Source of the DNA: an uncultured Clostridia bacterium
GTDB taxonomy: Bacteria; Bacillota; Clostridia; TANB77; CAG-508
Length of the DNA stretch: 64,000 nt
Direction: 5' to 3'
Assembly: GCA_944386175.1 (NCBI GenBank)
Contig: CALXAB010000001.1
Coordinates: forward strand, 47,645 to 111,644
In this document: piece after piece, positions 43,641-58,545 of the stretch
Position numbering within the stretch: position 1 is the stretch's first letter
How the letters are laid out: each line of letters opens with the position of its first letter
Notes under the pieces: generated by a model
Seen by the model: the letters and a program-made list of their open reading frames with translations, nothing else
What the model was told of the DNA's origin: nothing
Database searches by the model: none
Translations under genes and position numbers: made by a program

Positions 43641-43685
43641 TATTCTACTTAATTAAATATACTTATCCTTAAATCCTCTTAATCG

Positions 43686-43769: not shown

Positions 43770-43788
43770 ATACTTTTCTAAAAGGATT

Positions 43789-45225
43789 TTAACTATTTAT
43801 AAAAAATTGAATTATTGCAAATATTCCCATATCTGAAATTGTTTTTATTGCATCTACATTAGCAATAACTTTATAAGGGTGATGAATTACTAAATCTAAA
43901 TAGTTTTTCATTCCTTCATTATTAAAACATGTCTCCCATGCTCTTGAAATAGTATCGTCATCAATAAGATTTTGTTTATCTATTGATATTTTATTTATAA
44001 TCTTCTCTAATCTCAAGTCCAAATTATTATTTGCAGATTTCCATTTTTCCCATTTTCCTTTGTTTATTAAAAAATAGATGCTTGATTGTTCTAATAATGA
44101 GCGGATTAAAAAGCAATATGATATTGGGTAATTTTTATATAAATTTCCAAATGATAAATGCTGAATTTCATAGCATAGATTTTTAATCCCTTTAGCTCTA
44201 TCATTACTATATTTTAGTTTGCTACAATTAATATTTTTAAATAAAATACTATTGTCTTTTCTTGTTAATCTGATTTTATTAAATGCTATACTTTCATTTA
44301 TTTTATTTTTTACTATTTCACTTTCATTGGCATTATTATGTTTTTCTTCTCTACCATTAGAAAATATCTTCATTTGTTCATTTTTATTTTCTAAATTTTC
44401 ATTTATTTTATCTTTGCTGTCAAACCTTTCACTAACATTATTTTCTATATTGCCATACAAATATTTTTCTATATTAGCATTATTTTTTATTGTGTTACTT
44501 GTAATCCTACCACTTACAATATCTTGAACAATTCGTAATACTTTCTTGTCTAATTCATTTATTGAAGACAATGGCATTAAAACATTGTTATTAAAAGAAA
44601 TATTCAGATATTCTTTACCAACTTTTGAAGAAACAATCTTTTCAAACTTATTTACTGAAAAATTATTGTCAACTCCATCAAATGCTTTTTTACAAAATCC
44701 TTGTAATTGTGAAAATATATTTTTTACTCCCATTTTATCTTCAAATCTTTTTATTGAAGCTGTATCCCATTTTAAAGCTCCTGTATCAGTTGTATGTACA
44801 TTTCTTATATATCCAGCACAATCTTCAAATGAAGTGGCCACATAACAAGGAATTTGAAAATATTCTTCTCCTTGAATTCCTGCACTCATTGCATATATGC
44901 TTCTTATTTGTGTATATGAAAAGTATTTAAAAGATTCTACCAATTTAGGATTTTTTAAGATTTTCATTGCTGTTAATCTTCTATTACCATCCCATGCCAC
45001 AAATTTTTCTTTTTTCTCATCATAAGTGACTGTAACTATTGATTGTGGATACCAACCATTTGTGTAAATATCACTAATTAACTTATGCATTGCCTTCGCT
45101 TCTTTAGAATTTCTCACCAATTGTTGCATTATAAAAAGTTCATCCGCTATCATAATTTGTGTATGTCTTGGATTCTCTGGATTTACTAATATTTTTTCTA
45201 TGTCTATTAGTTGATGTTCTCTCAT
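43789..45225 (-). CDS. ParB/Srx-fold N-terminal domain protein with a large uncharacterised C-terminal region
   Basis: ILVNPENPRH and VAWDGNRRLTAMKIL (ParB-like nuclease/NTPase motifs). GGGGGA RBS before MREHQL. Confidence 0.55.
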   Translation of the reverse strand: MREHQLIDIEKILVNPENPRHTQIMIADELFIMQQLVRNSKEAKAMHKLISDIYTNGWYPQSIVTVTYDEKKEKFVAWDGNRRLTAMKILKNPKLVESFKYFSYTQIRSIYAMSAGIQGEEYFQIPCYVATSFEDCAGYIRNVHTTDTGALKWDTASIKRFEDKMGVKNIFSQLQGFCKKAFDGVDNNFSVNKFEKIVSSKVGKEYLNISFNNNVLMPLSSINELDKKVLRIVQDIVSGRITSNTIKNNANIEKYLYGNIENNVSERFDSKDKINENLENKNEQMKIFSNGREEKHNNANESEIVKNKINESIAFNKIRLTRKDNSILFKNINCSKLKYSNDRAKGIKNLCYEIQHLSFGNLYKNYPISYCFLIRSLLEQSSIYFLINKGKWEKWKSANNNLDLRLEKIINKISIDKQNLIDDDTISRAWETCFNNEGMKNYLDLVIHHPYKVIANVDAIKTISDMGIFAIIQFFINS

Positions 45226-45294
45226 ATATAATTCCCCCATTTTTTACCTTATAAAGTCTTTCGTAAATCCCTCATCATTCTTAAGTATATTATT

Positions 45295-46791
45295 CTATTT
45301 TTTTGCAATATATTTTTGATTTTTAGTATTTGGTTTATCTGGTATAGTCATTTGCAATTTTCCACTATCTAATAATGGTCTCATGTATTTTAAATAGAAA
45401 TTTCTTCTGTCTTTTAATCCTAAATATGCCATTATTTCTTTTGTTGTTTTTGGTTCTCTACAAAATTCTAATATTTTATCTTGATGGGTATCTTGGTGGA
45501 TATCTTGGTGGGTTGTTGGTCGGTCTTTTATCTCATTTTCAAATCTATCATGTATAAATATTGTTGTAATAAAATAATCTCTTGTTTCATTTGTTTCAAA
45601 CTCTGGTTCTTTTGAGCCATTATTTTTCAATGCTCTTTTTATTTTTGGAATACCTGTATTTCTACCTTCTGTTAATTTTAATTCTTTTAAAAACTCTCCA
45701 ATTCTACGATTTCTATATTTTCTTGCTATCATATTTTTATCTTCAATTGATTTTTCGCTTATTGAACGGTCTGGTCCTGGATAACTTACAATATGAATTC
45801 TATCTTCCATTATTCTTACTTCTACTGGTTCCCTTACATCATATCCTCTATGATAAACTGCATTTACTAATGCTTCTTCTATTGCTTGATATGGATAATT
45901 AAAAAATCTTACAGCCTCCGCTTGTCCATCTATCTTTAAAATTTTTTCCATAATAACAGTATTTTTAATATATGTTAAAGCACTTTTTATCATAGTATCA
46001 ATAGGTCCTTTAAATATTTGCTCTGTCATATCATCACCTTCTGGACCGTTTCTTAAATCTACTACTTCTATTTGTGAATATGGAAAGAATTTTTGTGGCT
46101 CATCATTAAAAAACATTAACCCTACATTTAAAGGTTTCATATATTCTGGTGTTCCATCTACTATTCTCATACTTTTACATAAATCTATAAAACTCATTGT
46201 TTCGGATTCTTTTAATAGTTCACTCTTTATCTCATATAAGTAATTTTGAATTAGTGGTAGTTTTAAATCTTGAATTTGTGCCTCATGATTCATTCTATCA
46301 TCGAATGGTATTACTCTTGCCATATCATATAATTCTTTTTGCTCTACTTCTGTAGCTTTTACTGTACTGGACATTTTTCTAATATAATATGAATATCCTT
46401 TTGAAAAATCTTTATCTAGTGTTGTTGGACATTTGTATGGTCTATTCTGACCACCAAAACACCATACTACTAGTATATTTTTACCTTTATATTGAGCAAC
46501 ATCTACAATTGGTGTATAGGCTGGCTGTATCATTTTACATTTTGTTAGCAATTCTTTTTGAATTTTATCTATTTCAGATAATTGTAGCCCTTCAAAATCT
46601 TTCTTAGGTCTACCATTTGCTTCTTCAACACCTATTAAAATATATCCTCCACCCCAGTTATCTATATCATTTGCAAAAGCACAAATTGTATGTAATATTG
46701 GTTCTGGATTCCAGTTTCTCTTTAATTCTAATCTTGCATTTTCTACAATGTTTTCATTTAGTATATTTTCTATACTTGTAGGTAATCTCAT
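45295..46791 (-). CDS. AlbA_2 (Schlafen-like) + HATPase_c_4 + C-terminal wHTH protein
   Basis: ENARLELKRNW...FANDIDNWGGGYILIGVEE (AlbA_2) and EALVNAVYHRGY (ATPase-like). C-terminal wHTH-like tail. HQDIHQDTHQD repeat. Confidence 0.7.
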   Translation of the reverse strand: MRLPTSIENILNENIVENARLELKRNWNPEPILHTICAFANDIDNWGGGYILIGVEEANGRPKKDFEGLQLSEIDKIQKELLTKCKMIQPAYTPIVDVAQYKGKNILVVWCFGGQNRPYKCPTTLDKDFSKGYSYYIRKMSSTVKATEVEQKELYDMARVIPFDDRMNHEAQIQDLKLPLIQNYLYEIKSELLKESETMSFIDLCKSMRIVDGTPEYMKPLNVGLMFFNDEPQKFFPYSQIEVVDLRNGPEGDDMTEQIFKGPIDTMIKSALTYIKNTVIMEKILKIDGQAEAVRFFNYPYQAIEEALVNAVYHRGYDVREPVEVRIMEDRIHIVSYPGPDRSISEKSIEDKNMIARKYRNRRIGEFLKELKLTEGRNTGIPKIKRALKNNGSKEPEFETNETRDYFITTIFIHDRFENEIKDRPTTHQDIHQDTHQDKILEFCREPKTTKEIMAYLGLKDRRNFYLKYMRPLLDSGKLQMTIPDKPNTKNQKYIAKK

Positions 46792-46842
46792 CTTCTCACC
46801 TTTCTTTTTCAAATGTCCGTTTTTTCGGACTTATAAAATTTT

Positions 46843-47259
46843 TTATTTCATATAATCTCTAATTTTAAATAATAACTCATCATCTAATATCTCTGTTGAG
46901 GCAAAATTATTTAAAGTATTATTATCTTCCCAATCTATATCAAATAAATTTATCACTTTATCATATCTTGGGAAAGCATGATAATGAACAAATGGATCAT
47001 GCATCATCATAATCATATAATTAAACTTTATTGCTCCAAACCTGTCTCTACATAGTTCTTCATACCATTTTATTACTTTTGGAAATTCAGCACCTTCATC
47101 TTGTAACATTCCACTTACATTTTGTGTTTCTCTTTTCAATAAAATAACTACATCTCCTAATGTTGTTTGTTTTTGCCTAACACAAACAATCCAATACTTA
47201 AACTCTTTAATACAAAGTTCCTCTGGTCTAAATTTTTTCATAAATTCTAAATTGTCCAT
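46843..47259 (-). CDS. HIT-like protein (138 aa)
   Basis: FVHYHAFPRY resembles the HxHxHxx histidine triad. Motif-level call only. Confidence 0.4.
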   Translation of the reverse strand: MDNLEFMKKFRPEELCIKEFKYWIVCVRQKQTTLGDVVILLKRETQNVSGMLQDEGAEFPKVIKWYEELCRDRFGAIKFNYMIMMMHDPFVHYHAFPRYDKVINLFDIDWEDNNTLNNFASTEILDDELLFKIRDYMK

Positions 47260-47282
47260 TGATAAGACCTCCTCTTACATTT

Positions 47283-47922
47283 TTATTTTTTAAACATATC
47301 ATTTAAATTATGTGATATTAATTTTAAATTATCTATATTTTCCCCTTCAATAACATAAGGCGTACAATGTTGTATTTGCAATTCAAATACTCTTTCTCTT
47401 GGTTCAATCTTAAACATATTTAAAAATAAGCACCTTATTGCATGATAATGTGAGAATATTCCTATTGTTATATCATCATTAAAATCTAACGAATCAAGAA
47501 ATCTTTTACATCTTATACTAACATCAGTATAGTTTTCTCCTTTTGGTGCTTTTTGTACGAAATCTGTTCTAAATTTATTAAATTTTTCATCTGTAATATA
47601 TTCATTATATTCATTAGAAGCTAATAAATCCTTCTTTTCCTTCAAATATTCCTAAACATCTTTCTCTTAAATCTTTACTTAAATTTAGTTCATATCCTGG
47701 TTTAGCTAATTTTGCTGTTTGTATTGCTCTCATTAAATCTGAAGAATAAACTTTTTTAATACTTTTAATAATATCATTTTTTGCTAAAATACTTGCTTGA
47801 TTCTTTCCTTATTCTGTTAAACTCGTCAATTCATTATCTAAAGTTCCTGTGTATAAAGCTGTTCCTTCATCATTTATCACGTTTGCCATTGTTTGTCCAT
47901 GTCTAATTATAACTATTCTCAT
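47283..47922 (-). pseudogene. histidine phosphatase (phosphoglycerate-mutase-like) gene with a nonsense codon and a frameshift
   Basis: MRIVIIRHGQT starts at 47922. In-frame TAA at 47809-47811. The C-terminal part (GENYTDVSIRCKRFL...FSHYHAIRCL) is in another frame (ORF 47283-47645). Confidence 0.75.
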
Positions 47923-48506
47923 TAATTGTTACCTTCCTTTTTATTCTTTATTGTTTCAATATATTCTTTAACATATGCGTTCATATCTCTATCAAATAGT
48001 TCTTTTGAATATTCTAATCTTAATAGTTCTTCTCTTAAGATTGGCAAATATACTTCTATAATTTCATCTAACGCCTCTGGTTCTTCTTCAATACATCTTT
48101 TCCATCTATTTTTTCCGATATAAGCAATTTTGTCTGCATCTCTTACAATTTTTCCTTCAACTGTTGGAGGAATACATTTTCTCTTATGATTTACTACTGC
48201 TGAATAACATTGTTCTATTATTTCATTACTATAACTTAACTTTTCCATTTCTTCTTTTAGAATTCTTCCGCTTTCTTCTTCATGTCCTTTATCTGTAACA
48301 GACCTTCCAACATCATGCCAATATGCAGCTATAATACATATTTCTTTATTAGCTGGTATCTCTTCTAATAATTCTTTTACATAGTTTACGACATCAATAG
48401 TATGACCTATAAAATGTAGAGGATCATTTTCACATACTTTCATTTTTTCTATAGCTATATCAATTAATTTTTTATTTTTATTATATATTTCTTCGTAAAT
48501 ATCCAT
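47922..48506 (-). CDS. HD-domain phosphohydrolase
   Basis: FIGHTIDVVNYV and AAYWHDVGR (H...HD motif). Confidence 0.7.
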   Translation of the reverse strand: MDIYEEIYNKNKKLIDIAIEKMKVCENDPLHFIGHTIDVVNYVKELLEEIPANKEICIIAAYWHDVGRSVTDKGHEEESGRILKEEMEKLSYSNEIIEQCYSAVVNHKRKCIPPTVEGKIVRDADKIAYIGKNRWKRCIEEEPEALDEIIEVYLPILREELLRLEYSKELFDRDMNAYVKEYIETIKNKKEGNN

Positions 48507-48680
48507 TCTATCTAAATTCTCCCTATCTCTATTCTTTTATATTTTGACCATATTTTACCATAAAACAATAAAAAAATAAAGCATATAACAAATTAAATTA
48601 TTACATACTTTACCTTTCAAGTTTTATCTCCAAACATTTTTATTTTTCGTTGACAAATCGTTGACATTATCAACAAGAAA

Positions 48681-50573
48681 TTATACTACTCCGCACACCA
48701 TGTCAACTTCTATCGTTACTTTAATTTTATGATTTTCTGTTCTTTTAACCTTATTTTTGCCTTTTCTATCAAAACTAATAAAATCTTCAAAAGCAGTAAA
48801 TTGGGCTATTGTATCGAATCTTTCAGACATAGCACCGAGCAACACTCCACATGGCTCACACCCAGTCTGTAGATAGTTTTGGCTTACCTCGTATGATGAC
48901 TGTTGCAAACTACCTTGATTTTTATCTTTTTGACATTTGATTTCGTTTCCAGATTTTAGGATAAATGTTATTACTCTTGGATTTACATCTCCATTTTGTT
49001 CTTTTTCTCCTATTATAACTTTTTCTATCATTAATTCAAAAACATCTTTATCAAATGTTGGCATTATTTCATCATCTTTAAATAGACTTTTAAACTTGTT
49101 TAATCCTTGATTTAAACTAATTGAATCTTCTAACTCTAGTTGTAAATGTTCTTGCTCTTTTTCTATTTTGTTTATCTTGTTTTGTAATTTTGCCTTTTTA
49201 TCTTTTAATGTTTCAAGTGTTATTGTTCCATTCAAGTTTAAATCAATTAACTTGTCTATCTTTTCTTTTAAAGTTTGTTTTTCTTCTTCTAATTTTTTAA
49301 TAGAACTTTCATTACTTTCTTCTTGTATGATTTCTTCCATTTGTTTTAAGAATGTTTTGATTAGTTTTTTGTTATTATTACATAAAAGTTTATAACTTTC
49401 TGTAAATGCTTCTTCTATAATGTTTTCTTTCATTGCTTTACAATATGGGCAATTTTCTTTTCCATGTTTTACAAATTCCATACAATGCCATACCGTAATA
49501 CTATTTTTTGTTCCAGAGTGCCAGTTTCTTCTTGTTAATAAACTTCCACAAAAACCACAATATATTCTACTACTAAAAGGATATTTTCTGCTAAAGTTTC
49601 CTTTTCTTCTTCCAGAGCCTCGTACTCCTCCTCGCTTTTGTAATATTTCTTGTGCTTGATTAAACATTCTTTCTGAAATAATTGGTTCATGATGTTCTTG
49701 TATGTAATACTGATTTTCTTCTCCCATATTGACTACTCTTCTATGTGAGATTGGATCTGTTGTATATGTTTTTCCTTGTAAGACATCTCCTTTGTATTTT
49801 TCGTTTTTCAAAATACCTCTTATAGTTGAGTCATGCCATTGTTTCTTTCCTGTTGGTGTTTTATATTTCATAGCAGTTAGTTCTTTTGCAATTGTTGTGC
49901 AACCTACTCCTTGACAGTATCTTTCAAAGATATATCTTACTATTTCTGCTTCTTGATAATTTACTGATATTTTCTTTGTTTCTTTATCATATACATATCC
50001 TAAACATCCATTATATCCAATTAATTCTCCTCTTTTTTGTTTCATCTGTAATCCTAGTTTTACATGAGAAGATATATTTTCGCTCTCCTGCTGTGCCATT
50101 GCACTCATTACTGTTAGCATTACTTCGCCAGATAATTCTAAAGTATTGATGTTTTCTTCTTCAAAATAAATAGTGATTCCTTTTTCCTTTAATAATCTTA
50201 CATACTTTAAAGTATCTACTGTATTTCTTCCAAATCTTGATATTGATTTTGTAATTATCATGTCAAATTTGTTTTCTGTTGCATCTTGCATCATTCTCAT
50301 AAAGTTATCTCTTTTATAGTCAAGTGTTCCTGTTATCCCTTCATCTGCATAAATCCCTACATAAGTCCAATCACTTCTTGATTTTATTTTTTCTTCATAA
50401 TATTTTAGCTGAGAATTATAACTATTTATTTGTTCTTCTTTTTCTGTACTAACTCTTGCATAGGCACATACTCTTAAATTGCCTTTTATAACTTCTCCTG
50501 TTGTTCTATTAATTCTTCCTTTTTTCTTCTCTATTACTTGTACTTTCAAAATTAACCTCTCTTTCTCAAGCAT
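48681..50573 (-). CDS. large serine recombinase, unit C, with an in-frame C-terminal CxxC tail
   Basis: VCAYARVSTEKEEQ, SISRFGRNTVD, CGFCGSLLTRRNW...CPYCK and a coiled coil. About 90 extra C-terminal residues are homologous to ORF 40822-41004. Confidence 0.9.
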   Translation of the reverse strand: MLEKERLILKVQVIEKKKGRINRTTGEVIKGNLRVCAYARVSTEKEEQINSYNSQLKYYEEKIKSRSDWTYVGIYADEGITGTLDYKRDNFMRMMQDATENKFDMIITKSISRFGRNTVDTLKYVRLLKEKGITIYFEEENINTLELSGEVMLTVMSAMAQQESENISSHVKLGLQMKQKRGELIGYNGCLGYVYDKETKKISVNYQEAEIVRYIFERYCQGVGCTTIAKELTAMKYKTPTGKKQWHDSTIRGILKNEKYKGDVLQGKTYTTDPISHRRVVNMGEENQYYIQEHHEPIISERMFNQAQEILQKRGGVRGSGRRKGNFSRKYPFSSRIYCGFCGSLLTRRNWHSGTKNSITVWHCMEFVKHGKENCPYCKAMKENIIEEAFTESYKLLCNNNKKLIKTFLKQMEEIIQEESNESSIKKLEEEKQTLKEKIDKLIDLNLNGTITLETLKDKKAKLQNKINKIEKEQEHLQLELEDSISLNQGLNKFKSLFKDDEIMPTFDKDVFELMIEKVIIGEKEQNGDVNPRVITFILKSGNEIKCQKDKNQGSLQQSSYEVSQNYLQTGCEPCGVLLGAMSERFDTIAQFTAFEDFISFDRKGKNKVKRTENHKIKVTIEVDMVCGVV

Positions 50574-50616
50574 AGAGAATCTTTATGTTTGTATTATATA
50601 TTAAAATCTTATATTT

Positions 50617-50802
50617 TTAAATACCTATATGAGTTAAATCATATTCTTTTAAAATATTTTGTTTTAGTTCTAAATATCTTTCCTCTTTAATTAGTCCTGC
50701 ATTATATGTTTTATTTAGAATTGCTATTTTAATGCTACAATTAAAAATATTTTCATTTAGTTTTACATTTTTCGTATTATCAAATTTTACTTCGTACAAC
50801 AT
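50617..50802 (-). CDS. 61-aa conserved small ORF preceding the LSR (copy C)
   Basis: AGGGAGAA RBS. Same protein as copy A apart from a few substitutions. The 105-aa form in the ORF track would run through the leader hairpin and promoter. Confidence 0.6.
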   Translation of the reverse strand: MLYEVKFDNTKNVKLNENIFNCSIKIAILNKTYNAGLIKEERYLELKQNILKEYDLTHIGI

Positions 50803-50905
50803 AAAAATTCTCCCTTGCTTAAATAAAATTTCAAAAAAGAGCAATAGAAAAAGCCAGTCGGCTAGCTTCGACTGACTTCTTTGTCTGACATTTTTTGATA
50901 ATACG

Positions 50906-50934
50906 ATTATATTATGATGTTCTATAAAGTTCAA
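50906..50934 (-). promoter_or_regulatory. consensus sigma-A promoter of unit C
   Basis: TTGAAC (50934-50929), 17-nt spacer, TATAAT (50911-50906). A leader hairpin AGTCAGTCG..CGACTGGCT at 50852-50878 plus TTTTT follows. Confidence 0.6.
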
Positions 50935-50939
50935 TTCCC

Positions 50940-51355
50940 GTTTTTTTCCCTTTTTTCTATTTTAATTGATAAAGTGTTGATTTTTTAGTTAGTACACTAA
51001 GTGAACTTGTGTAAAAATTTTTTTAATTATTTTTTACTTTATTATTTTTGAGTTCACTCGGTGTACTTAGTTTTTTATTATATCAATTTTTAGTACACTT
51101 AGTGAACTAATTATAAATTATTTCATAAAATTTAGTACACTTGGTGAACTTTTTCTTAAAAATTACTTATCTTTCGTTCATTTAGTGAACTTTCACACTC
51201 TAAAAGAGATTTTTTAGTCATTCATTCGGTGAATTTTTGCATCAAATTTGCTTAAAATTTTTGTTCTTTTATTAACTCTTGAAAGCTTGACCTTCAATGT
51301 GTATATGCGTTGCGTGATGCACGCTATCCTGCCTTTAGTGTTCACTTTATATCCT
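50940..51355 (-). repeat. R module, copy C
   Basis: Dyads at 50991-51007, 51051-51067, 51092-51108, 51134-51150, 51176-51190 and 51220-51234. Core and hairpin at 51272-51333. Abuts the stop codon of the 617-aa gene. Confidence 0.85.
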
Positions 51356-53209
51356 TTAATTAGTATTAGATTCTGATGTAGTTTTATTTACAACACCCAA
51401 GTTCTTAATACTATCTTGTAAACTTTCATCTGGAATAAAGTTTCTACAATTTTCTAATTTATAAAATTCCCCTAATTTATCTATATCTTTATATAAGAAA
51501 TAAAAATAGTTTTTTAATGCATTTTCTGTTGTTTCTAATCTAGGTCTTAATGAGTATGCTCTTTTCTTCTTATAGAAATAGTTTTCATTAAATAATTTAT
51601 ATAAATTATTTAGTTCATCACTATCTAATGTTATTTTGTGAAATCTCGTTTCTTTGAAAATATAATTTATTTTATCAATGTCTATATTTAAATCATCAAC
51701 ATATTCTCTAATGTTATTCTTGCTTATTATAGTTATTATAGATAATGTAATACTCATAATTATATAATCCATAAATTCTTTTGATAAATTCATTGTCCTA
51801 AATATTTTTATTGATCTAATATCATTGTTTTCAATCATTTTTAAAAACATTATAATGATTGGTTCACCCTTTATAAGATATGGTATAAATATTTCTTCTT
51901 CATGTATATTTTTTCTTTGCAGAAAATCATTAATACTTCTATCTGGAAATTTTTCCCTATGTTCCATTAATCTAATATTATCGTATAATTCTTCTAGTAC
52001 TCTGTACTTTTCATTTTTAGTTAAATTCTTATTTTCAATAACACATGTATATACAGATTCTAAATATCTATTACTAGTAAACATATATATAGAATCATAT
52101 TTATATAATCTACAATAGCTAAAATCTATAACATTTTCATATAGAAAAATTAAATACATATCTAATTTAATAATTCTCCATACAAGATTTATATATTCTT
52201 TTTCTTGACTTTCAGTTTGAATATATTTTATTTTATCTATTAAATTTGCAATATTTTGCATTTTATAATCATCATGAACAGGCACAAATTCATAATAAGC
52301 AAACATTGTATAAAGTTTACAATATATATTTGCAGCCTCTATATGTTTATTATATAAAATCAAATGCGAAACTATTTCATGTATAGCACTAATCAAATCA
52401 CTTCTAAAAATCATTTCTGTATAATATTCTTGAAGAATTTTTTTGTTATTAAATAAAGTTAAATCTATAAGATTCATTATGTTGTGAATATTATAATTAT
52501 AATCATTATCATTTTTTTGTATTAATACTAATGTTTGATTCTTTAAGTCTGTGATATCTTTGCACCCATGGCTATTTAGAGGAATCGCCTTTTTTATATG
52601 CTTCTTTTGTTTCTCTAAATACATACATAGTAAACTGTTTCCAAACCAATTTTTATGAGTGTAAAACCAAATCATTTTAATACACATATAAAATATAACT
52701 ACAAGAGAAAGCAAAAAATTTATTAATATTAGTATTTGACTACTGCCTTTTAGGCATTGTATAATATTTACAAATAATAGGAGAACTAAAATTATAAAAA
52801 TTTTTAGCAATGATAAAAAACTATTGTTAGGGAAAATAACATTAATATGTTTTTTTCCCAATATATAACTTTCAGACAACCCAGATAATAAAGATATTAC
52901 TGAAATTATTATCAATGTATTACTAATTTGAGCTACTAATATATCATTTGAATCAATGTTAAATTCTTTATTCAAGTCTAATATATTTTCAATTTTGTAA
53001 TCATTAATAGCATAAAAAATTACAAACATACTAAATATAACTATACTAAACATAAAAATAATCATTAAAAAATTCATAATTTTTTGTTTAACTACAAAAT
53101 ATTTTTTATTATCATATATTTTATACCATTTTAAAAATTCTTTTATTTTATAATTTTTATTTAAAATAAATCTTCTTATTTTTTTTAATTTACCATTAGA
53201 ATCTTCCAT
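51356..53209 (-). CDS. 617-aa membrane protein of unknown function, downstream of AbiEii
   Basis: About five N-terminal TM helices, then a ~400-aa soluble region with no motif I recognise. Lies 56 nt after abiEii. Confidence 0.55.
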   Translation of the reverse strand: MEDSNGKLKKIRRFILNKNYKIKEFLKWYKIYDNKKYFVVKQKIMNFLMIIFMFSIVIFSMFVIFYAINDYKIENILDLNKEFNIDSNDILVAQISNTLIIISVISLLSGLSESYILGKKHINVIFPNNSFLSLLKIFIILVLLLFVNIIQCLKGSSQILILINFLLSLVVIFYMCIKMIWFYTHKNWFGNSLLCMYLEKQKKHIKKAIPLNSHGCKDITDLKNQTLVLIQKNDNDYNYNIHNIMNLIDLTLFNNKKILQEYYTEMIFRSDLISAIHEIVSHLILYNKHIEAANIYCKLYTMFAYYEFVPVHDDYKMQNIANLIDKIKYIQTESQEKEYINLVWRIIKLDMYLIFLYENVIDFSYCRLYKYDSIYMFTSNRYLESVYTCVIENKNLTKNEKYRVLEELYDNIRLMEHREKFPDRSINDFLQRKNIHEEEIFIPYLIKGEPIIIMFLKMIENNDIRSIKIFRTMNLSKEFMDYIIMSITLSIITIISKNNIREYVDDLNIDIDKINYIFKETRFHKITLDSDELNNLYKLFNENYFYKKKRAYSLRPRLETTENALKNYFYFLYKDIDKLGEFYKLENCRNFIPDESLQDSIKNLGVVNKTTSESNTN

Positions 53210-53265
53210 ATTTTGCTCCCATTTTCATATATTCATTTAATTATTCTATGTATGTAGTTATTAGA

Positions 53266-54111
53266 TTATTTTTTTAATTCATTCTTTATTTCTTCTAATA
53301 CTCCCATCGTATCTTCATAATTAATATCTTCTGCATAACTAAATTTAGATTGATAATTCTTCCAATGCTCTTTCAGAACATCACTTTCTTTTATAACTTC
53401 CATTATCTCATTTATATTATTTAATTTATCCATTGAACCTCTATATTCAAATTTCTTCAATATAGCTTGTCCTAATAATTCTTTATTAAAATTTTGTTGT
53501 TGAGTAGTCCATAATATATAAATATCATAAAAATCTCTCGCTCTTGTAGTATCTATATTTCTTGATATAATTGTTTCAAATTTATCAGCTATTACTGTTT
53601 CCATATTATATGCTAATATTTCTATTGAACGATTTTCAAACATTAAATCGAACTTATAATTTACTTCTTTTGGAACAATTACATCTCCTGTTGTTATATC
53701 TAATTTCATTGGTACAACTAACTTATCAAATTTAGCATCTAAAGCTACTCTGTATCCTCCATATTCATCTTCTTGTCTTATTTCTTTTATACTTCTAAAT
53801 TCAAATGCTACTCCATCATCTAAATCTATATTAAAAATTTCATTTAAGATATTTTCAAGATTATCCTTTTCTAAATCAAATCCTTTTATCGTTGCATCCA
53901 TATCAAGAGTATTTCTCATGTCTATTCCAACTATTGCTGTTATTAACATTCCTCCTTTTAATACAAATTTATATTTGTATTTTGATACCGAAATTCTTTC
54001 CAATAGTCTTTCTAGCATATAGTTTTGTAAAATAATGTTTTCATTCACATCTACTTTATCTGACATATTCTTTATCCATGCTTTTAATTGTGCTCTATTT
54101 TTTGCTATCAC
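53266..54111 (-). CDS. AbiEii/AbiGii-family nucleotidyltransferase toxin (third locus, intact)
   Basis: FVLKGGMLITAIVGIDMRNTLDMDATIKG nucleotidyltransferase core. 281 aa. Overlaps the abiEi stop by 4 nt. Confidence 0.8.
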   Translation of the reverse strand: MIAKNRAQLKAWIKNMSDKVDVNENIILQNYMLERLLERISVSKYKYKFVLKGGMLITAIVGIDMRNTLDMDATIKGFDLEKDNLENILNEIFNIDLDDGVAFEFRSIKEIRQEDEYGGYRVALDAKFDKLVVPMKLDITTGDVIVPKEVNYKFDLMFENRSIEILAYNMETVIADKFETIISRNIDTTRARDFYDIYILWTTQQQNFNKELLGQAILKKFEYRGSMDKLNNINEIMEVIKESDVLKEHWKNYQSKFSYAEDINYEDTMGVLEEIKNELKK

Positions 54112-54701
54112 AATAACACCTCCAAGTATTTTCTTACTTCATCTTCAATATTAAATAATTTTGCATATTTGTGTAGTTTAATAGAGTTTCTATCTTTTCT
54201 TTCAGCATATCTTTTCATCGCATCTGTAAATAAGGCAATTTCTATTTTTTTCTTATTTCTGATAATGTCACATATTGTTCTCTCTAAATCATAAACTTTA
54301 ACTTTGTTTCCATATGGTGTATTCATTTCTATTATTCCTAATTCATATAATTCATCTTTTAAATAGAAAAATTGATAGTTTCTATCTTTTAGTAATTTAG
54401 TATTATAGTAACTAGGTATAGTCAATTGATATTTTATGGGAGTTCTATCACATAAATCATGAAAATACAAAGCTGTCTCATGAGAGAATATCCCTTTTTT
54501 ACAAATTGCTTGTGTGATAAAATAATTATCTTCAAATGTATCTGCTCCAATATATACTCCTCTTGCTACTCTATCTATCAATCCCTTTTCTATCATCCTT
54601 GTTAAAATCTTATTATTTATCCCAATATCTTCTACTTGATATGTTTCAATCACTCCATTATTATTTTTTAATAATTTTTCTACTTTTTCTATATCATCCA
54701 T
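54108..54701 (-). CDS. AbiEi-family antitoxin (third locus)
   Basis: NNGVIETYQVEDIGINNKILTRMIEKGLIDRVARGVY wHTH region. Paralog of 13551-14141. Confidence 0.75.
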   Translation of the reverse strand: MDDIEKVEKLLKNNNGVIETYQVEDIGINNKILTRMIEKGLIDRVARGVYIGADTFEDNYFITQAICKKGIFSHETALYFHDLCDRTPIKYQLTIPSYYNTKLLKDRNYQFFYLKDELYELGIIEMNTPYGNKVKVYDLERTICDIIRNKKKIEIALFTDAMKRYAERKDRNSIKLHKYAKLFNIEDEVRKYLEVLL

Positions 54702-54716
54702 AAATTTTCTCCTTTG

Positions 54717-54761
54717 CCGTTTTCATTCGTAAATATTATATCATTTACGAATAAAAACGGC
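54717..54761. promoter_or_regulatory. inverted repeat upstream of abiEi-3 (candidate operator)
   Basis: GCCGTTTTCATTCGTAAAT - 7 nt - ATTTACGAATAAAAACGGC, 16 nt upstream of the start codon. Confidence 0.5.
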
Positions 54762-54810
54762 AACAATATTTAAAAAATTAATAGCACAAAATTAAAATTT
54801 GTGCTAAAAT

Positions 54811-55296
54811 CTAACTTTCAAAGTAAAATGCTAACCTTGAATTATTTCTAATATATTTCTCCTCAAAATTATTATTTGTAAAATTTTTTATAGTCTTTCT
54901 CCAAAATTTTTGAGCTCTTTCATTTTTTAATAATGTTCTAACTTCCCATTTTCCTTTATATAACTCAAACATTTTATTTGCCATATATGTACCTGCTCCC
55001 ATTTTTCTATACTTGTTAAGAATAAAAAATTCAGCTATTTCGTTCATATTTTCTTCATTAAATCTATGTAAAACAAAACCTGCTAATTCATTATCACATT
55101 TTAATATATATGGATGTCTATTTTCTTCTTGCCAGTATCTTTCAACATATTTATTCATTACATATAATCCAGAATCTAGCATTGTAAATGTTGCTGTCTC
55201 ATCTTCAAAAAAGCTAAGCTCATATGTATATAATTGCATTAAATTATATATTATATTTTTGTCTTTTTCATCAACTTTTATTAAATCAAATCTCAT
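54811..55296 (-). CDS. GNAT family N-acetyltransferase
   Basis: FFILNKYRKMGAGTYMANKMF (motif A). Confidence 0.7.
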   Translation of the reverse strand: MRFDLIKVDEKDKNIIYNLMQLYTYELSFFEDETATFTMLDSGLYVMNKYVERYWQEENRHPYILKCDNELAGFVLHRFNEENMNEIAEFFILNKYRKMGAGTYMANKMFELYKGKWEVRTLLKNERAQKFWRKTIKNFTNNNFEEKYIRNNSRLAFYFES

Positions 55297-55325
55297 TTTC
55301 TTCTCCTTATTTAAATAATAAAAAA

Positions 55326-55949
55326 CTATTTTTCAATTTCATTATCATATATACTTTTATATTCTTCAAACTTAGCCTTTGCTCTTGGTAGTCCTGCATC
55401 CACTGCCATCTTTAAATAATATTCTGATAATCTTAAATTTTTCTCTGTTCCAACTCCATTATAATAAAAATTTGCTCCTAAATCATAAATTGCTGGAAGA
55501 TGTCCTTGTATTGCACAGTCATGTATTAATTCAAATGCTTTCTTTTCATCTCTTTCAATATTTCCAAATCCAAAATAGTAATAAGCTCCTAAACAAAATT
55601 TTGAAAATGCTTGTCTTCTCGGTGTTTCTTGTTCTTCATTTATAAGACTTAATAGTGATTCATAAGCCTCAATATGTATCTGTTTTGCTTTTTCTTTATC
55701 TTGTTCCACTCCATCTCCAAAATGATAGCAAGCACCAACTCCATATGCACAACGAGGATCTCCTAAGTCTTTTCCTTTTTCATACCAGTACATTGCTTTT
55801 TCAAAACTTTGCTCTGCTCCATTTTCTTGACTATCATAACTTCTTCCTAGAATATAGCACGCAAGTCTATCTCCATTTTTAGCTTTCATTTCTAAATCTT
55901 CTATGTTAAATATCATTGGCTTTATTATATTATTCACTTTTAGCTTCAC
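55326..55949 (-). CDS. Sel1-repeat (TPR-like) protein
   Basis: Repeated Sel1 units: AxxWYxKGxDLGDPRCAYGVGACYHFGDGVEQDKEKA. Confidence 0.75.
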   Translation of the reverse strand: MKLKVNNIIKPMIFNIEDLEMKAKNGDRLACYILGRSYDSQENGAEQSFEKAMYWYEKGKDLGDPRCAYGVGACYHFGDGVEQDKEKAKQIHIEAYESLLSLINEEQETPRRQAFSKFCLGAYYYFGFGNIERDEKKAFELIHDCAIQGHLPAIYDLGANFYYNGVGTEKNLRLSEYYLKMAVDAGLPRAKAKFEEYKSIYDNEIEK

Positions 55950-56481
55950 CTAATTTCTTTAATAAAATATATCTTTTTATATTTTCATCTTTTTTATACC
56001 AAGTTTGTTCCTCATATCCTAAGTCTTTTAAATTTCTTAAACTATAAATATTTCCAAAAGTTACTTCTGCAATAATGTTACTTATTCCTTTTTCTTTAGC
56101 CCTTCCTTCAAGATATTTTACTAATGTTTTCTGTAATCCATATCCTCTATACTCTGGTAATACAATAACTCCATCTATATCAGCACAATTACCTTTGATA
56201 TTTGTAATCATTTGCTTTAATTCTTTCATTCTGCTTGAAACTGATAAAAAAATCCATGCAATCATTTTATTATCTATAAAAGCACCATATATCTCTCCAT
56301 CATTTATAGGGTTGTTTAATATCCTTAAATATGTTTCTTTTTTAAAAGGTAAAAAATAACCTTTTTCCTCCTCTTTAAAATTATCTATTACAATATTTTG
56401 AATATTATATATGTCATCAACGTCATTCGAATTGCATTTTCTAATTTTTAGTTTTTCCTTAGAAAATTGATTAATTTCCAT
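55930..56481 (-). CDS. GNAT family N-acetyltransferase
   Basis: VLPEYRGYGLQKTLVKYL (motif A). Confidence 0.7.
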   Translation of the reverse strand: MEINQFSKEKLKIRKCNSNDVDDIYNIQNIVIDNFKEEEKGYFLPFKKETYLRILNNPINDGEIYGAFIDNKMIAWIFLSVSSRMKELKQMITNIKGNCADIDGVIVLPEYRGYGLQKTLVKYLEGRAKEKGISNIIAEVTFGNIYSLRNLKDLGYEEQTWYKKDENIKRYILLKKLGEAKSE

Positions 56482-56498
56482 ATTTTAATTCACCTTCG

Positions 56499-57494
56499 TT
56501 ATTTTGTTTTTTCAAAAATATCACTCCAAAAGTCATTGTTGCTAAATTCTAATCCTTTTTCACTTTCATAATACCAAAATTTATCTTCTTCCGATATTTC
56601 TCCTTTACTCATCAAATGACTTAACTGTAAAATTCCCATTGCATTTGCAATATCAAATAATATTGGAAATACTTCTTTTTCATAGCTTGTCAATTTATTA
56701 TATTTCTCATACTCATTTAATATCATCCTTATCTTGTTTTTGGTATCTTCAGTATCATTTGGGTTTAAACATAAGTTACAACTACTTACAGCTAAATCAA
56801 TAATTCTAGGAAGATAATTTGACACTGCAAAATCTATTATCCATAATTTTCCATTATTATCTTTCATAACATTTGTACTTATTATATCTCCATGTGTAAA
56901 AGCATGTGGTAATTTTTGCATATCAATATTTTTAAATTTTACTATCAATTCATTTAACCTTGTGTAATCATTTTCACTTAAATGTTGTTTTTTATCCTCA
57001 AACTCTTGTGCAAAATTTATAATTGCCCATTTGTCATAAATAAACTCTGAATCTAATTTTTGGTTATGTATAATCGCCATTTGTCTTATAATTTCTTTTA
57101 TTTCTTCTTCACTTGGAATAATTCCTAAATCAAAAAAGCTATTACCATTTATGTACTGAAATACACATAATCTATATTTGATATTTTCTATTTCAATTAC
57201 ACATTCACTTTCATTATTTACTTTATACAGTTTTGGTGTATTTATTTCTGTTTTTTCTGCTAATTCAATTCTCTCAATATAGTTTTTACAATCTGTATCT
57301 GTTCTTTCTTTATGAAATATTTTTACACAATATTTTCCTGTTGTTGTCTTTAATATATAATTGAAATCTTCATACCCAACTGTAATAATCGTATCTGATA
57401 CATATTCTCCTAAATTATACATATTACATATATGTTTTGAAACTGTACTTAAATCAGTGTTTAGATTAATCCTATCTTTAAATTCTTCTTCCAC
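56499..57494 (-). CDS. APH/choline-kinase-family phosphotransferase
   Basis: Catalytic loop HGDIISTNVM and WIIDFAVS (DFxxS). Confidence 0.7.
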   Translation of the reverse strand: MEEEFKDRINLNTDLSTVSKHICNMYNLGEYVSDTIITVGYEDFNYILKTTTGKYCVKIFHKERTDTDCKNYIERIELAEKTEINTPKLYKVNNESECVIEIENIKYRLCVFQYINGNSFFDLGIIPSEEEIKEIIRQMAIIHNQKLDSEFIYDKWAIINFAQEFEDKKQHLSENDYTRLNELIVKFKNIDMQKLPHAFTHGDIISTNVMKDNNGKLWIIDFAVSNYLPRIIDLAVSSCNLCLNPNDTEDTKNKIRMILNEYEKYNKLTSYEKEVFPILFDIANAMGILQLSHLMSKGEISEEDKFWYYESEKGLEFSNNDFWSDIFEKTK

Positions 57495-57500
57495 TAATAT

Positions 57501-57833
57501 TTATACCTCCATGTACCATTGTTTAAGAAATATACATTTATTGCTCTTATTTAATTTTATTTGATATATCATGTCATATAATATTGTATCTTTCAAAATA
57601 AAATTAACTATACAACATTCATCATTTTCACATAGTATATTGAACTCAATATCATTTGTGTTTTGCCCTTTTATTTCTTCCCATATTTCTCTAATTTTTT
57701 TCATGTTATTTATTTTTTCTATAGGCGACTCATAATACTCCACTTTTTCATCAAATAAGTTAATTATCTTGTCTATATCTTTCTGTTTCCAATTATTTAG
57801 TAATTCATCACACCATTTATAATAATCTCTCAT
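57501..57833 (-). CDS. hypothetical protein (110 aa)
   Basis: ORF only. Its start lies 7 nt from the stop of the kinase gene. Confidence 0.4.
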
Positions 57834-57929
57834 ATTCTATTCTCCTAATCTTTACTGTATATAATATATCATAAATTCCTTAATTTTACAATGAAATCGC
57901 CAATATTTTAATATTACATATATCTTTAC

Positions 57930-58364
57930 ATTTGCTTAACTACCCCAAAATCTCCAATAGAAATAATGTCAAGAGCGAGTGATAACAAGTTCATTTACTC
58001 TTGACATTATTTGTATTGGAGATTAAAATTGCTTTGCAAATGTATAGCACAAATTTTTCGCTTTTTTCGTGATATAAAATTCCATCGGACGAAAATTTCA
58101 ATTTTTTCGTCCGATAAATTTTTATAAGCCGAATTTCATTAAATTTTCGTCCTATAAAAAATAAGCATCAGCAGATATCTACCAACACTTAAATTTATAA
58201 AGATTCTCTATAACTTATTTCATAAATTCTTTCTAACTATTAAAATAACTAATAAATTCACATATCTACTAACCACCTCAACCTATATATGTTTTTCTTG
58301 CCATAGATACAATCTCAAATTTCCTAGTATTTCAAACACTTTCATCAATTTTCTAAAATTTAAT
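57930..58364 (-). repeat. copy d of the non-coding segment found downstream of LSR B (40480-40821), with hairpin H at 57952-58021 and a ~120-bp insertion
   Basis: Collinear with 40480-40821. The insertion at ~58040-58165 carries TTTTCGTSNKATAAA motifs, including the perfect IR ATCGGACGAAAA / TTTTCGTCCGAT (58084-58115). Confidence 0.8.
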
Positions 58365-58545
58365 TTATGTGTTTCCATTTACCATATCTGCAACTACTTT
58401 AACTTTCACATCTGAATTTTGATGTTTTTCTCTTCCAAATCTACCTTTTTTATTAAAAGTTATAATCTCTGAAAACATATCAAAATCAAGTATTACCTGC
58501 CTTTCTTTAGTTGTAGCACTGCTACACACTCCACATGTGTGGTCG
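58365..58545 (-). pseudogene. orphan 3' end of an LSR gene (CxxC tail only)
   Basis: HTCGVCSSATTKERQVILDFDMFSEIITFNKKGRFGREKHQNSDVKVKVVADMVNGNT with no start codon. Similarity to LSR B stops at ~58545, next to CACATGTG (58532-58539). Confidence 0.75.

Follow-up and report, generated by a model that had tools for sequence, protein, structure and literature searches.

What makes large serine integrases attractive for genome engineering is their supposed need for nothing but short att sites. The large serine recombinase (LSR) family is held to need just minimal att sites and a directionality factor, and beyond SCCmec and a few phages little is known of how LSR expression and directionality are controlled in nature. 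Here we ask what is done by the arrays of short dyads that stand upstream of LSR genes in a 64,000-nucleotide stretch of DNA from an uncultured Clostridia bacterium (the window, meaning the whole stretch analysed). These genes belong to an element family that is widespread in uncultured gut Clostridia, with islands longer than 50 kb that are rich in defence, toxin-antitoxin and transporter genes. The family has an elaborate, highly conserved control module, of which the phased array is the main feature, and the identity of its binder would show how the islands decide on excision. The phased dyad array is a real feature, conserved across dozens of species; it most probably controls the timing of integrase production.

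Phased dyads upstream of the recombinase genes

Array C (50991-51235, minus strand) consists of six 17-bp dyads of the form AGTWCAC-N3-GTGWACT. Four of the six are perfect (50991, 51051, 51092 and 51134), the dyad at 51175 has two mismatches, and a weak sixth, with the core ATTCATTCGGTGAAT, occupies 51219-51235. On the LSR strand the array runs from its distal end at 51235 to its proximal end at 50991. Start-to-start spacings are 60, 41, 42, 41 and 44 bp, a recount that reproduces the 60, 41, 42, ~42 and ~44 bp of the first-pass annotation. The two dyads nearest the promoter, spaced by 60 bp, have a nearly pure A/T tract between them (51008-51050, no strand assigned), and a spacing class of 60-62 bp is kept in many loci. 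Allowing up to two mismatches, the motif has 18 matches in the window, compared with 0.32 expected (mean of 100 shuffles, maximum 3). None of the 18 lies outside four clusters, namely array C, array A (36541-36775), array B (43236-43504) and an orphan cluster (20108-20209). Arrays A and B, both on the minus strand, have six sites each, spaced by 60, 41, 32, 41 and 44 bp and by 41, 33, 39, 43 and 96 bp, respectively, values within 1 bp of those first annotated. Comparison of the copies likewise bears out that the dyad is kept in the diverged copy B and that the spacers are not.

The dominant spacing class across loci, 41-44 bp, corresponds to ~4.0 helical turns. The remaining spacings (23, 31-33, 60-62, 75, 84-85 and 95-96 bp) are in phase at a 10.5-bp period (R=0.41, p ~3e-5, n=59 unique units). 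The earlier claim that most sites face one side of the helix is supported, though less strongly than had been implied; giving each spacing value one vote weakens the result to p=0.07.

Alignment of the loci shows that the dyads are the informative part, with 14 positions strongly conserved, and that the spacers are free. The prevailing dyad is a hetero-pair, GTTCAC + GTGTAC, and dyads of mixed orientation occur within arrays. In 162 of 213 dyads (76%) the two W positions are anti-complementary, the reverse of what selection for hairpins would leave, which favours protein sites over hairpins. Conserved dyads, drifting spacers, spacings near multiples of 10.5 bp and the W asymmetry together fit the earlier view that these are probably sites for a dimeric protein on one helical face.

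The Firmicute LexA (Cheo) box is GAAC-N4-GTTC and the Rex box is TTGTGAA-N4-TTCACAA. The dyad reads GTTCAC-N3-GTGAAC, an arrangement that is the reverse of both and has another spacing; this comparison agrees with the first reading of the motif as neither a Cheo/LexA box nor a Rex box. To our knowledge, it matches no known Firmicute box.

The arrays belong to one element family

The same arrays occur upstream of related LSR genes (at least 80% identity, plus B-type LSRs) in ~45 GTDB species genomes and on ~40 metagenome contigs. All 428 dyads with at most one mismatch lie inside such arrays, and no isolated dyad was found in 969 kb of low-GC related sequence. The dyads are thus private to the element family in the ~1 Mb sampled, and the spread over many unrelated promoters that would mark a global regulator is not seen. 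Arrays typically hold five to eight dyads, and some intact units have only 2-3. The hosts are low-GC gut Clostridia, all apparently of one lineage.

Searches of IMG/VR contigs gave no true matches to the arrays, viral and plasmid collections gave chance matches only, and plasmid DNA yielded neither similarity nor a true dyad match. Comparable arrays were not found with distant LSR relatives (41-49% identity). Metagenome matches with a GC content of at least 0.35 were rejected as family members, being unrelated 21-bp tandem perfect palindromes (AGTTCACGNCGTGAACT).

In a third and equidistant LSR lineage (D-type), the corresponding place holds 2-3 dyads of another sequence, AATACA-N5-TGTATT, in the same 17-bp frame, and here too the proximal dyad precedes the promoter by roughly 100 bp. 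Units of the D-type and of the AGTWCAC-type are found together on a single contig or in a single MAG, each with its own motif variant. The ParB-HTH protein encoded in D-type units is confined to them and was dismissed as a general binder. The dyad is the same for LSR C and LSR B, although the two LSRs share only 59% identity and their smORFs 39%; neither the LSR nor the smORF is singled out by clean co-variation.

A fixed module between cargo and integrase

Each array is a fixed part of R, the 5' control module of the integrase operon. In gene-strand order, the last cargo gene is followed by two covarying inverted repeats, the array, ~60 bp with short direct repeats, a sigma-70-like promoter, a hairpin in the leader, a helical smORF and the LSR, whose 3' end contains the att core. 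In copy C, on the minus strand throughout, the module starts with a conserved block (51236-51345) that contains the invariant GGCAGGAWAG (51324-51333), an invariant ACACAT, and two conserved inverted repeats at 51307-51324 and, with the sequence TTGAAGGnCAAGCCTTCAA, at 51279-51297. Across loci, 97.8% of the cells of these inverted repeats are paired, with 64 double changes, a level reached in none of 500 shuffles; the folding energy of the block is unremarkable (z = 0.08). A small basic peptide encoded across the block (ORFs of 43, 35 and 41 aa, present in all four copies) was rejected, its frame being stopped in 22 of 59 copies owing to a compensatory TTG/CAA to TAG/CTA change in the second inverted repeat. 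A known RNA family for array or block is likewise ruled out by the Rfam search, which gave no match at gathering score in the whole window and chance-level matches only for R in E-value mode.

Gene content upstream of R varies among loci right up to GGCAGG, and co-oriented cargo genes stop a few bases before the module. This sharp left edge bounds the conserved integrase module and is not a crossover in common with rumA. Genes 5' of the arrays vary from unit to unit (an ABC transporter and unknowns of 483 and 617 aa), on which ground an SCCmec-like replication origin beside a Cch-type helicase was discarded.

The smORF-LSR operon has a predicted sigma-70-type promoter (50906-50934; TTGAAC, 17 bp, TATAAT) that is kept across loci. 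Two putatively functional GGGAA direct repeats 11 bp apart, as read from the sequence (50935-50950), abut the -35 element, and where cargo follows the array, homology restarts just upstream of them. The leader between promoter and smORF contains a terminator-like hairpin followed by a T run (50850-50874), and the D-type clade has an analogous hairpin. In all three lineages the LSR is directly preceded by the smORF (61 aa, 50617-50802 in copy C), and no protein other than these two is conserved in every unit. The AF2 model of the smORF is a two-helix hairpin without a DNA-binding fold; Foldseek returned nothing below E = 1 for this model, and searches of Pfam, PHROGs and NCBIfam found nothing beyond a weak SHOCT_2 match. 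We therefore rejected the smORF as an RHH or HTH regulator. Profile searches found no recognisable regulator encoded in C- or B-type units. A Cro/C1-type HTH gene in the window (25594-25884) was dropped as a trans-regulator, a homologue being absent from every other locus.

The position of the array is fixed, between the stop codon of the upstream gene and the TTGAAC-17-TATAAT promoter. The dyad closest to the predicted start is centred ~100 bp upstream of it, and neither -35 nor -10 is overlapped by a dyad. Cargo of ~1.5 kb parts the whole array from the promoter in five genome loci with an intact LSR gene (L009, L018, L019, L020 and L037; four distinct sequences, L009 and L019 being identical), and in L001, L013, L022, L027 and L036 cargo sits within the array. 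The array stays with the upstream block, never with the promoter, even in recombinase-less fossils. Its function may thus belong with the block rather than with transcription.

The window holds tandem rumA-targeting elements

The window holds a tandem, head-to-tail series of integrative elements that target rumA/rlmD, a known kind. Such serine integrases have an att core that the integrase gene has in common with a TRAM/rumA-like gene and that lies within the 3' end of each (PMC4701971). The LSRs here have the domains of that class, Resolvase, Recombinase and a Zn-ribbon. LSR C (630 aa, 48681-50573, minus strand; Resolvase, Recombinase and Zn_ribbon_recom) has its att core, CATGTGGAGTG, within the 3' end of its gene (48843-48853, minus strand). 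LSR B (571 aa, 40964-42679, minus strand), with its smORF upstream (42882-43058, minus strand), has an att core at 40984-40994 that overlaps its last codons. The core CAYGTGGARTG, common to the 3' ends of integrase and rumA/TRAM genes, was found at 65 distinct junctions. It was located by homology mapping against one locus, L154, in which the same ~600-bp sequence, X, follows both the TRAM gene 3' end and the LSR B 3' end.

Integration swaps the 3' ends, as described for such integrases (PMC4701971), and the integrase C-termini differ in length for that reason (571 aa in LSR B, 630 aa in LSR C). The "CxxC tail" of LSR C, its last ~55 aa, lies 3' of the att core; it is no DNA-binding module but read-through beyond the core, where a degenerate copy of the 3' end of rumA follows (PMC4701971). 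The repeat landscape is thus one of ordinary, well-precedented tandem rumA-targeting elements, which makes both this tail and the "recombinase units" less surprising.

The L154 mapping, which places the att core at LSR 3' ends, also excludes the array or the block as an att site. From the core to the array there are 2.1-2.5 kb, and more where cargo is inserted, so the array is not part of the crossover site. The first-pass suggestion of accessory sites of a recombination synapse sits poorly with this distance, which holds for the att cores of both C and B. A reading centred on the spacer, in which each 42-bp unit would be a 39-bp pseudo-att with half-sites at its bounds, was also discarded, as the spacers have no conserved central motif and the orientation of the half-sites is the reverse of att.

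The other copies are all on the minus strand. X (40469-40994) comprises the att core, a remnant like the rumA 3' end and a promoter module that starts the next element. A second copy (57835-58537), with its att core at 58527-58537, is preceded by an LSR 3' end remnant and contains three hairpins with a 40-bp period at ~58040-58160. Block B is joined (43498-43776 in all) by an extended conserved upstream segment, a type-i flank with an extra CCTCA...TGAGG inverted repeat. In copy A, block A (36768-36883) and smORF A (36169-36354) precede a dead fusion ORF (35451-36125), in which the first 48 LSR codons are joined to a purD-like C-terminal part. A site-specific event at this junction was rejected; the break falls in an A-rich run without an att-like motif, and the fusion therefore probably arose by illegitimate deletion. 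The orphan R (20108-20323) retains a block (20202-20323) and three distal dyads (20193, weak; 20149; 20108) and directly abuts an X-end promoter module (20005-20092); it is a recombinase-deleted fossil.

How the array might act

The best reading, which we hold tentatively, is that the array forms a cooperative nucleoprotein complex by which the recombinase operon is silenced or insulated. The dyads would be sites for a dimeric, sequence-specific protein. Along a row of five to eight such sites, most of them some four turns from the next, the dimers would align on one face of A/T-rich, bendable DNA and form a single cooperative complex. This complex would hold the recombinase operon off, by upstream silencing or wrapping and/or by stopping read-through from the cargo genes, and the island would be excised only after the binder is removed. 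The sequences themselves show the sites with their conservation, spacing and asymmetry, their exclusive link to this module and their distance from the att site; from these we infer protein binding, cooperativity and transcriptional output. The LSR is the leading element-encoded candidate for the binder, since the smORF is modelled as a helical hairpin without a DNA-binding fold; this would amount to autoregulation, and a host factor is the alternative. Tight control of an island LSR promoter has a precedent in SCCmec, whose recombinase promoter is tightly repressed through a LexA box in ccrC1/ccrAB, LexA repressing ccrC/ccrAB (PMC5397144). A conventional operator set does not describe the array, as the dyads lie off the core promoter and a cognate HTH repressor is absent from C- and B-type units. 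The first-pass proposal of operators that repress the promoter at the proximal end of the array is weakened: the nearest dyad leaves -35 and -10 free, and cargo intervenes in five loci.

Other readings have to be weighed against silencing or insulation. A cis-acting site for maintenance or transfer of the excised circle, which we judge unlikely, could be a centromere with sopC-like repeats and a ParB-type binder, an iteron-type origin that would unwind at the A/T tract, or an oriT region with the nick site in the block inverted repeats and relaxosome accessory proteins on the dyads. F sopC consists of 12 repeats of 43 bp, and iterons are normally direct repeats at ~22 bp. Like sopC, the arrays have ~43-bp tandem units with pairs of 7-bp inverted repeats and a phasing of about four turns; an A/T-only tract of 43 bp separates the two proximal dyads; the array is always coupled to a block with structure-conserving inverted repeats and invariant unpaired motifs, and the two persist together when the promoter is separated or the LSR lost. 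D-type units, moreover, carry a ParB-HTH protein (PF17762). That protein is missing in all C- and B-type loci, however, and neither the units nor the elements of the window have a conserved ParA, full ParB, Rep, helicase or relaxase. The centromere-like site of the first-pass annotation thus has the anatomy of sopC, repeats with a short inverted repeat included, but lacks a conserved ParA/ParB pair or replication gene beside it on a replicon, and only its dyads are conserved, whereas the units of sopC are near-identical. An iteron origin is countered by the mixed orientation of the dyads, the absence of a Rep or helicase gene and the usual ~22-bp direct repeats of iterons. Some intact units have only 2-3 dyads, and similarity to plasmid DNA was not found. 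Far less probable still is a selfish or structural repeat, such as REP-like hairpins, small RNA hairpins or a hotspot of slipped-strand or homologous recombination. Cargo inserted within or after arrays and the varying copy number suggest that arrays are recombination-prone, and tandem perfect 21-bp palindromes do exist in unrelated organisms. Yet in 76% of copies the anti-complementary W would leave a 7-bp stem mispaired at its centre, the dyads are confined to the R module, 14 positions are strongly conserved against free spacers, and an Rfam match is absent.

The remaining readings concern the binder, and each seems to us quite improbable. In one, a chromosomal transcription factor would make integrase expression depend on the physiology of the host, in the way that LexA acts on ccr in SCCmec (PMC5397144). 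The lack of an encoded regulator in C- and B-type units, their common dyad at 59% (LSR) and 39% (smORF) identity and the apparently single lineage of low-GC gut Clostridia that hosts them would suit such a factor. Against it, no site occurs outside R arrays in 969 kb, core genes included (among them the spoIIIA operon and yebC in the window), the motif is by inspection not a Cheo/LexA box and resembles no Firmicute box known to us, and D-type units in the same genomes use another variant; this co-occurrence, each type with its own variant, is awkward for a single host factor. In another, the LSR would bind the dyads as res-like accessory sites that set synapse topology, directionality or the choice among tandem att sites, with autoregulation as a by-product. 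A canonical LSR dimer has a footprint of 40-50 bp, more than a 7-3-7 site can accommodate; the array is at least 2.1-2.5 kb from the crossover core, whereas res, cer and arm sites lie within ~200 bp and res dyads within ~150 bp; and we know of no accessory-site use by LSRs. For small serine recombinases, binding to a dyad array that precedes the recombinase gene is established, as in Tn3 res, and the smORF and LSR are the sole proteins conserved in all units. The L154 attB also has GTTCAC as its left outer motif and GTGCTAC as its right arm, to be compared with the hetero-pair GTTCAC + GTGTAC, but the likeness is partial, the right arm needing a 1-nt gap to match the A-type half of the dyad and the P arms reading CTACAG or CTGCAAC. 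A related version, of similarly small probability, has the integrase, alone or with the smORF, bind dyads that mimic the juxtaposed outer zinc-ribbon-domain motifs of the rumA attB (GTTCAC ... GTG(C)TAC), the array acting as an arm-type landing pad or recombinase sink for autoregulation and an excision threshold. If the integrase does bind the array, this would be a new DNA-binding mode for the LSR family, and its first case of accessory DNA sites and of self-titration.

Comparison with known systems

Like those of PMC4701971, the elements here have an LSR with the att core inside the integrase 3' end. They differ in having no conjugation module, in being stacked in tandem like SCC and in carrying the R module (block and array) and the smORF upstream of the integrase; the passages on rumA in that paper do not describe the region upstream of the integrase. 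SCCmec and other SCC elements resemble the window in that LSR-mobilised islands accrete tandemly at the 3' end of an rRNA methyltransferase gene, and an inverted repeat lies upstream of ccrAB. The target gene differs (rlmD/rumA-like here, rlmH in SCCmec), and the LSRs of the window, at 133 bits, do not come near the Ccr cut-offs of 900. Whereas the SCCmec box overlaps the promoter, the control element here is a phased array of 5-8 dyads upstream of it.

In Tn3/gamma-delta res, likewise, imperfect dyads stand upstream of a serine recombinase gene; the recombinase binds them, which aids recombination and represses its own gene. However, res has three subsites (I-III) in ~120 bp that include the crossover, whereas more than 2 kb separate the arrays here from it, with up to 8 sites, 42-bp spacing and much tighter 7-3-7 half-sites. 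The array can also be likened to lambda OR/OL, where several 17-bp 7-3-7 quasi-palindromes with a TCAC...GTGA-like core are bound cooperatively with a specificity for each element group. Lambda operators overlap promoters, are 23-24 bp apart and lie beside the repressor gene; here the dyads are ~100-330 bp upstream of the promoter with 42-bp spacing, and a repressor gene is absent. sopC, for its part, works with a ParA/ParB partner on a replicon, both of which are missing here.

A partial likeness of the dyad half-sites to the outer motifs of att arms (GTTCAC / TACA) was noticed post hoc. Besides that of L154, attB left arms read GTTTACA, ATTTACA or ATATACA, which partially match AGTWCAC.

In the DNA sampled, dyad arrays occur in one conserved module

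We inspected sequence 50700-51600 directly and searched the window for the 17-bp dyad AGTWCAC-N3-GTGWACT. Array C holds four perfect dyads, starting at 50991, 51051, 51092 and 51134, followed by an imperfect one at 51175 (two mismatches) and a weak one at 51219-51235. Start-to-start intervals are 60, 41, 42, 41 and 44 bp; the first of them is taken up by a tract (51008-51050) that consists almost wholly of A/T. Both approaches agree in detail with the sites and spacings that the first-pass annotation had described for this array. Allowing up to two mismatches, the pattern matched 18 times in the window, versus 0.32 expected from dinucleotide-preserving shuffles, and all 18 matches fall within four clusters: 50991-51191 (C), 43236-43504 (B), 36541-36731 (A) and 20108-20165 (orphan). 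A promoter-like TTCACT-18-TGaTATAAT also lies on the minus strand within array C (51077-51106), with one dyad containing its -35 and the next following directly after it; neither copy A nor the array consensus conserves this sequence.

LSR C, the large serine recombinase (LSR) of unit C, was used as a query against one genome per GTDB species and returned 80 loci, mostly from uncultured gut Clostridia MAGs. The same dyads occur upstream of the LSR in about 45 loci whose LSR is at least 80% identical; an adjoining conserved block starts at a fixed distance of about 98 nt from them. LSR relatives at 41-49% identity showed no comparable arrays. A metagenome scan for dyad pairs gave 70 loci; every low-GC match contained block and array, and mostly the LSR and its preceding small ORF (smORF) as well. 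The annotation had warned that matches at many unrelated promoters would indicate a global host regulator. In 969 kb of low-GC DNA, which includes core genes of the window such as the spoIIIA operon, all 428 dyads (at most one mismatch) lie within such arrays and none outside, so that on this sample the arrays withstand the annotation's refuting check. Viral contigs and plasmids yielded chance matches only.

Metagenome matches with GC of at least 0.35 were rejected as arrays of this kind. They are unrelated 21-bp tandem perfect palindromes of other organisms (AGTTCACGNCGTGAACT; L133 6831-6910, L096 3894-3960, L084 8271-8330 and similar loci), located in Bacteroidales-like intergenic regions and inside an ORF of a 63% GC contig. 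Although their sequence fits the dyad pattern, no block, smORF or LSR accompanies them.

The array belongs with the smORF-LSR operon

Nearly all genes around the arrays lie on the minus strand, where the order is stop codon of a variable cargo gene, block, array, promoter, leader hairpin, smORF and LSR. The block occupies 51236-51345 (110 nt) in C, 43498-43618 in B, 36768-36883 in A and 20202-20323 in the orphan, all on the minus strand. A predicted minus-strand promoter, TTGAAC-17-TATAAT, spans 50934..50906, and the minus-strand smORFs (50617-50802 in C, 36169-36354 in A, 42882-43058 in B) encode 58-61 aa. Genes 5' of the arrays are mutually unrelated (ABC transporters, unknowns of 483 and 617 aa), and the array therefore belongs with the features downstream of it. 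Between the promoter and the first gene, C-type units carry a terminator-like hairpin with a T run (50874..50850, minus strand), which has a D-type counterpart (L056 ~2925-2986), suggesting attenuation control or a short leader RNA in both types. The integrase promoter has short direct repeats adjoining its -35 (in C-type units GGGAA-N6-GGGAA, 50935-50950, minus strand; in D-type units TTTCAAAA-N3-TTTCAAAA, L056 ~2862-2885), which look like activator sites; the conserved promoter module starts just upstream of them.

D-type LSRs (55-62% identity) share the same block, as in L056 on a complete chromosome. Their order is block, dyads, promoter, leader hairpin, a ParB-HTH protein (PF17762), smORF homologue and LSR. 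Here two or three dyads at a spacing of 21-23 bp keep the 17-bp frame but read AATACA-N5-TGTATT, and the promoter lies about 75 bp beyond. LSRs of types C, B and D stand about equally far from one another (54-59% identity; smORFs 35-42%), yet C and B have the AGTWCAC dyad in common.

The units are tandemly accreted rumA-targeting elements

L154, a 1.86-Mb contig with the exact smORF of a relative, reveals the attachment site. On it, the host TRAM/tRNA-U5-methyltransferase (RumA/RlmD-like) gene has its end at 1255, and beyond it comes X, a ~600-bp segment that recurs 17 kb further on, after the stop of a B-type LSR (copies with att core at 1220-1825 and 18319-18911). In the window, X follows LSR B (40994-40469) and recurs at 58537-57835. 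Junction alignment shows that the last codons of rumA and of the LSRs overlap a common core, CAYGTGGARTG, with 65 distinct junctions among the loci. The three cores in the window, all in LSR gene orientation, lie in the 3' ends of LSR C (48843-48853) and LSR B (40984-40994) and at the remnant that opens X (58527-58537).

This element type is already known. Single serine integrases targeting rumA are described in streptococcal ICEs and C. difficile CTn5, with the att site inside the integrase gene and integration exchanging the rumA and int 3' ends (the account in PMC4701971). The window elements resemble these in the att core common to rumA and integrase 3' ends, and are accreted in tandem in the manner of SCC elements. 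Each element starts with X, and the elements of the window are stacked SCC-like over more than 50 kb. The repeats that had been annotated as recombinase units are explained by this tandem accretion. The literature searched yielded no description of the module with the dyad array.

The same architecture explains several irregularities. The "CxxC tail" of LSR C (630 aa) arises by read-through beyond its core into a decayed rumA-3'-like copy, and LSR B (571 aa) is shorter owing to rumA-type 3'-end exchange at the att core. Copies without a recombinase (L085 and the orphan, which has only the block and three distal dyads) are deletions that fused the array with the terminal promoter module of X. 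Copy A contains a chimeric minus-strand ORF (35451-36125). Its first part is the initial 48 codons of an LSR, which extend through the catalytic serine motif, and its second part is the C-terminal ~175 aa of a purD-like gene. Because the two parts meet within an A-rich run, unit A was probably killed by an illegitimate deletion.

Dyads have the properties of double-stranded protein sites

Conservation is strong at 14 of the 17 dyad positions, and the spacers between dyads carry little information apart from A/T richness. Across about 48 arrays, about two thirds of the intervals are 41-44 bp; the minor classes (23, 31-33, 60-62, 75, 84-85 and 95-96 bp) are near multiples of 10.5. A Rayleigh test on the non-main classes gave R=0.41, p about 3e-5 (n=59), and p=0.07 when each spacing value was counted once. 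The two W positions are non-complementary: a GTACAC half is paired with a GTTCAC half in 162 of 213 dyads, versus 50% expected. A selected hairpin would give the opposite of this pattern, and Rfam gave no match. We conclude that the dyads are double-stranded DNA sites, usually with built-in polarity, from which we infer recognition by a dimeric protein.

The block was aligned in 59 non-identical copies, from GGCAGGAWAG to the first dyad. After the invariant GGCAGGAWAG come two inverted repeats parted by an invariant ACACAT; the block also holds a CAAG loop. Pairing is retained in 97.8% of cells, and 5 of the 11 pairs show compensatory double changes (64 in all), a score that 500 shuffles never equalled; slid controls dropped to 30-55%. 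Exceptions of G-U and A-C type are equally rare and so favour neither strand, nor RNA over DNA; folding energy is ordinary and Rfam gave no match for the block. Possible roles for the block are those of a second protein site, of a structure that pauses or terminates cargo read-through, or of a single-strand (oriT-like) structure. A small ORF across the block was ruled out by stop codons in 22 copies.

Candidate binding proteins

No encoded regulator was found in C/B-type units. The smORF lies directly upstream of the LSR in every lineage (58-74 aa), down to L075 (47% LSR identity), and forms 182 clusters in a large protein collection, all of about 61 aa and with no Pfam. Its model is a two-helix hairpin (pLDDT 80) with no informative fold match; the sequence weakly resembles SHOCT_2, with the motif G-L-I-x-E-E-x-Y...K-x-x-I-L. 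By position and size the smORF may be a recombinase cofactor or directionality factor. Among the conserved proteins of the unit, only the LSR remains as one that binds DNA. The left arm of attB reads GTTCAC at -17..-12 in L154 (GTTTACA, ATTTACA or ATATACA in other hosts) and the right arm GTGCTAC at +11..+17. These outer motifs resemble the dominant dyad hetero-pair GTTCAC ... GTGTAC, a partial match noticed post hoc; to fit a dyad half the right arm needs a gap of one base, and the P arms are different. We raise the idea, rather than count it as support, that the dyad may correspond to the two outer motifs of attB without the central ~20 bp.

Role of the array

The reading with the best support is that of a cooperative, phased protein-binding array that forms part of the control module for the integrase in rumA-targeting tandem islands. 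Its most likely role, held tentatively, would be to silence or insulate the smORF-LSR operon. The array is not a classical operator, as had been proposed for its promoter-proximal end: even the closest dyad has its centre about 100 bp upstream of the predicted start, and five genome loci (four different sequences; L009 = L019) have the entire array uncoupled from the promoter. What stays constant is the coupling to the block; that the two together form a cis-site for maintenance or transfer seems unlikely.

Known recombination systems have their accessory sites no further than about 200 bp from the crossover. Here the crossover is ~2.1-2.5 kb from the array, at the opposite end of the operon, and ten genome loci carry 1.2-1.5 kb of cargo genes within or just after the array (L001 2345-3550, L009 1960-3445, L013/L022/L027/L036, L018-L020, L037) that widen this distance. 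This comparison makes the suggested direct architectural role, as accessory sites in a recombination synapse, unlikely, and res-like LSR-bound sites affecting recombination are quite improbable. An operator set for a host factor is likewise distinctly unlikely, since D-type and C/B-type units occur together in one contig or MAG and a single factor would need to read both dyad variants. Repeats without a protein partner are very improbable given the W-position pattern and the Rfam result.

Cargo and other repeats of the islands

One cassette inserted inside the arrays, or between array and integrase promoter, consists of an SDR and an 81-aa gene with its own TGnTATAAA promoter and dyads on both flanks; a second pairs an MBL-fold hydrolase with a 119-aa gene. 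Island cargo in the window spans 12700-35200 and 43789-57833, core genes (spoIIIA operon, yebC) starting below ~12.2 kb. It includes three AbiEi/AbiEii pairs, three hisS paralogues with hisZ/hisG/hisIE, several GNATs, an APH, a Schlafen/AlbA_2-HATPase protein, a ParB-N-terminal-like protein of 483 aa and an ECF sigma/anti-sigma pair. Another kind of repeat, different from the dyad arrays, is formed by hairpin arrays of 40-bp period with 3-7 units, found in X (~58040-58160 of the window), in L056 (2446-2560) and L052 (3677-3876), and upstream of the block in L049/L058/L061, often after a Fic-family gene. In each unit, arms of ~10 bp enclose an A-rich loop of 12-14 nt (for example ATAGGACGAA-N12-TTCGTCCTAT), and the arms vary among units of one array with complementarity kept.
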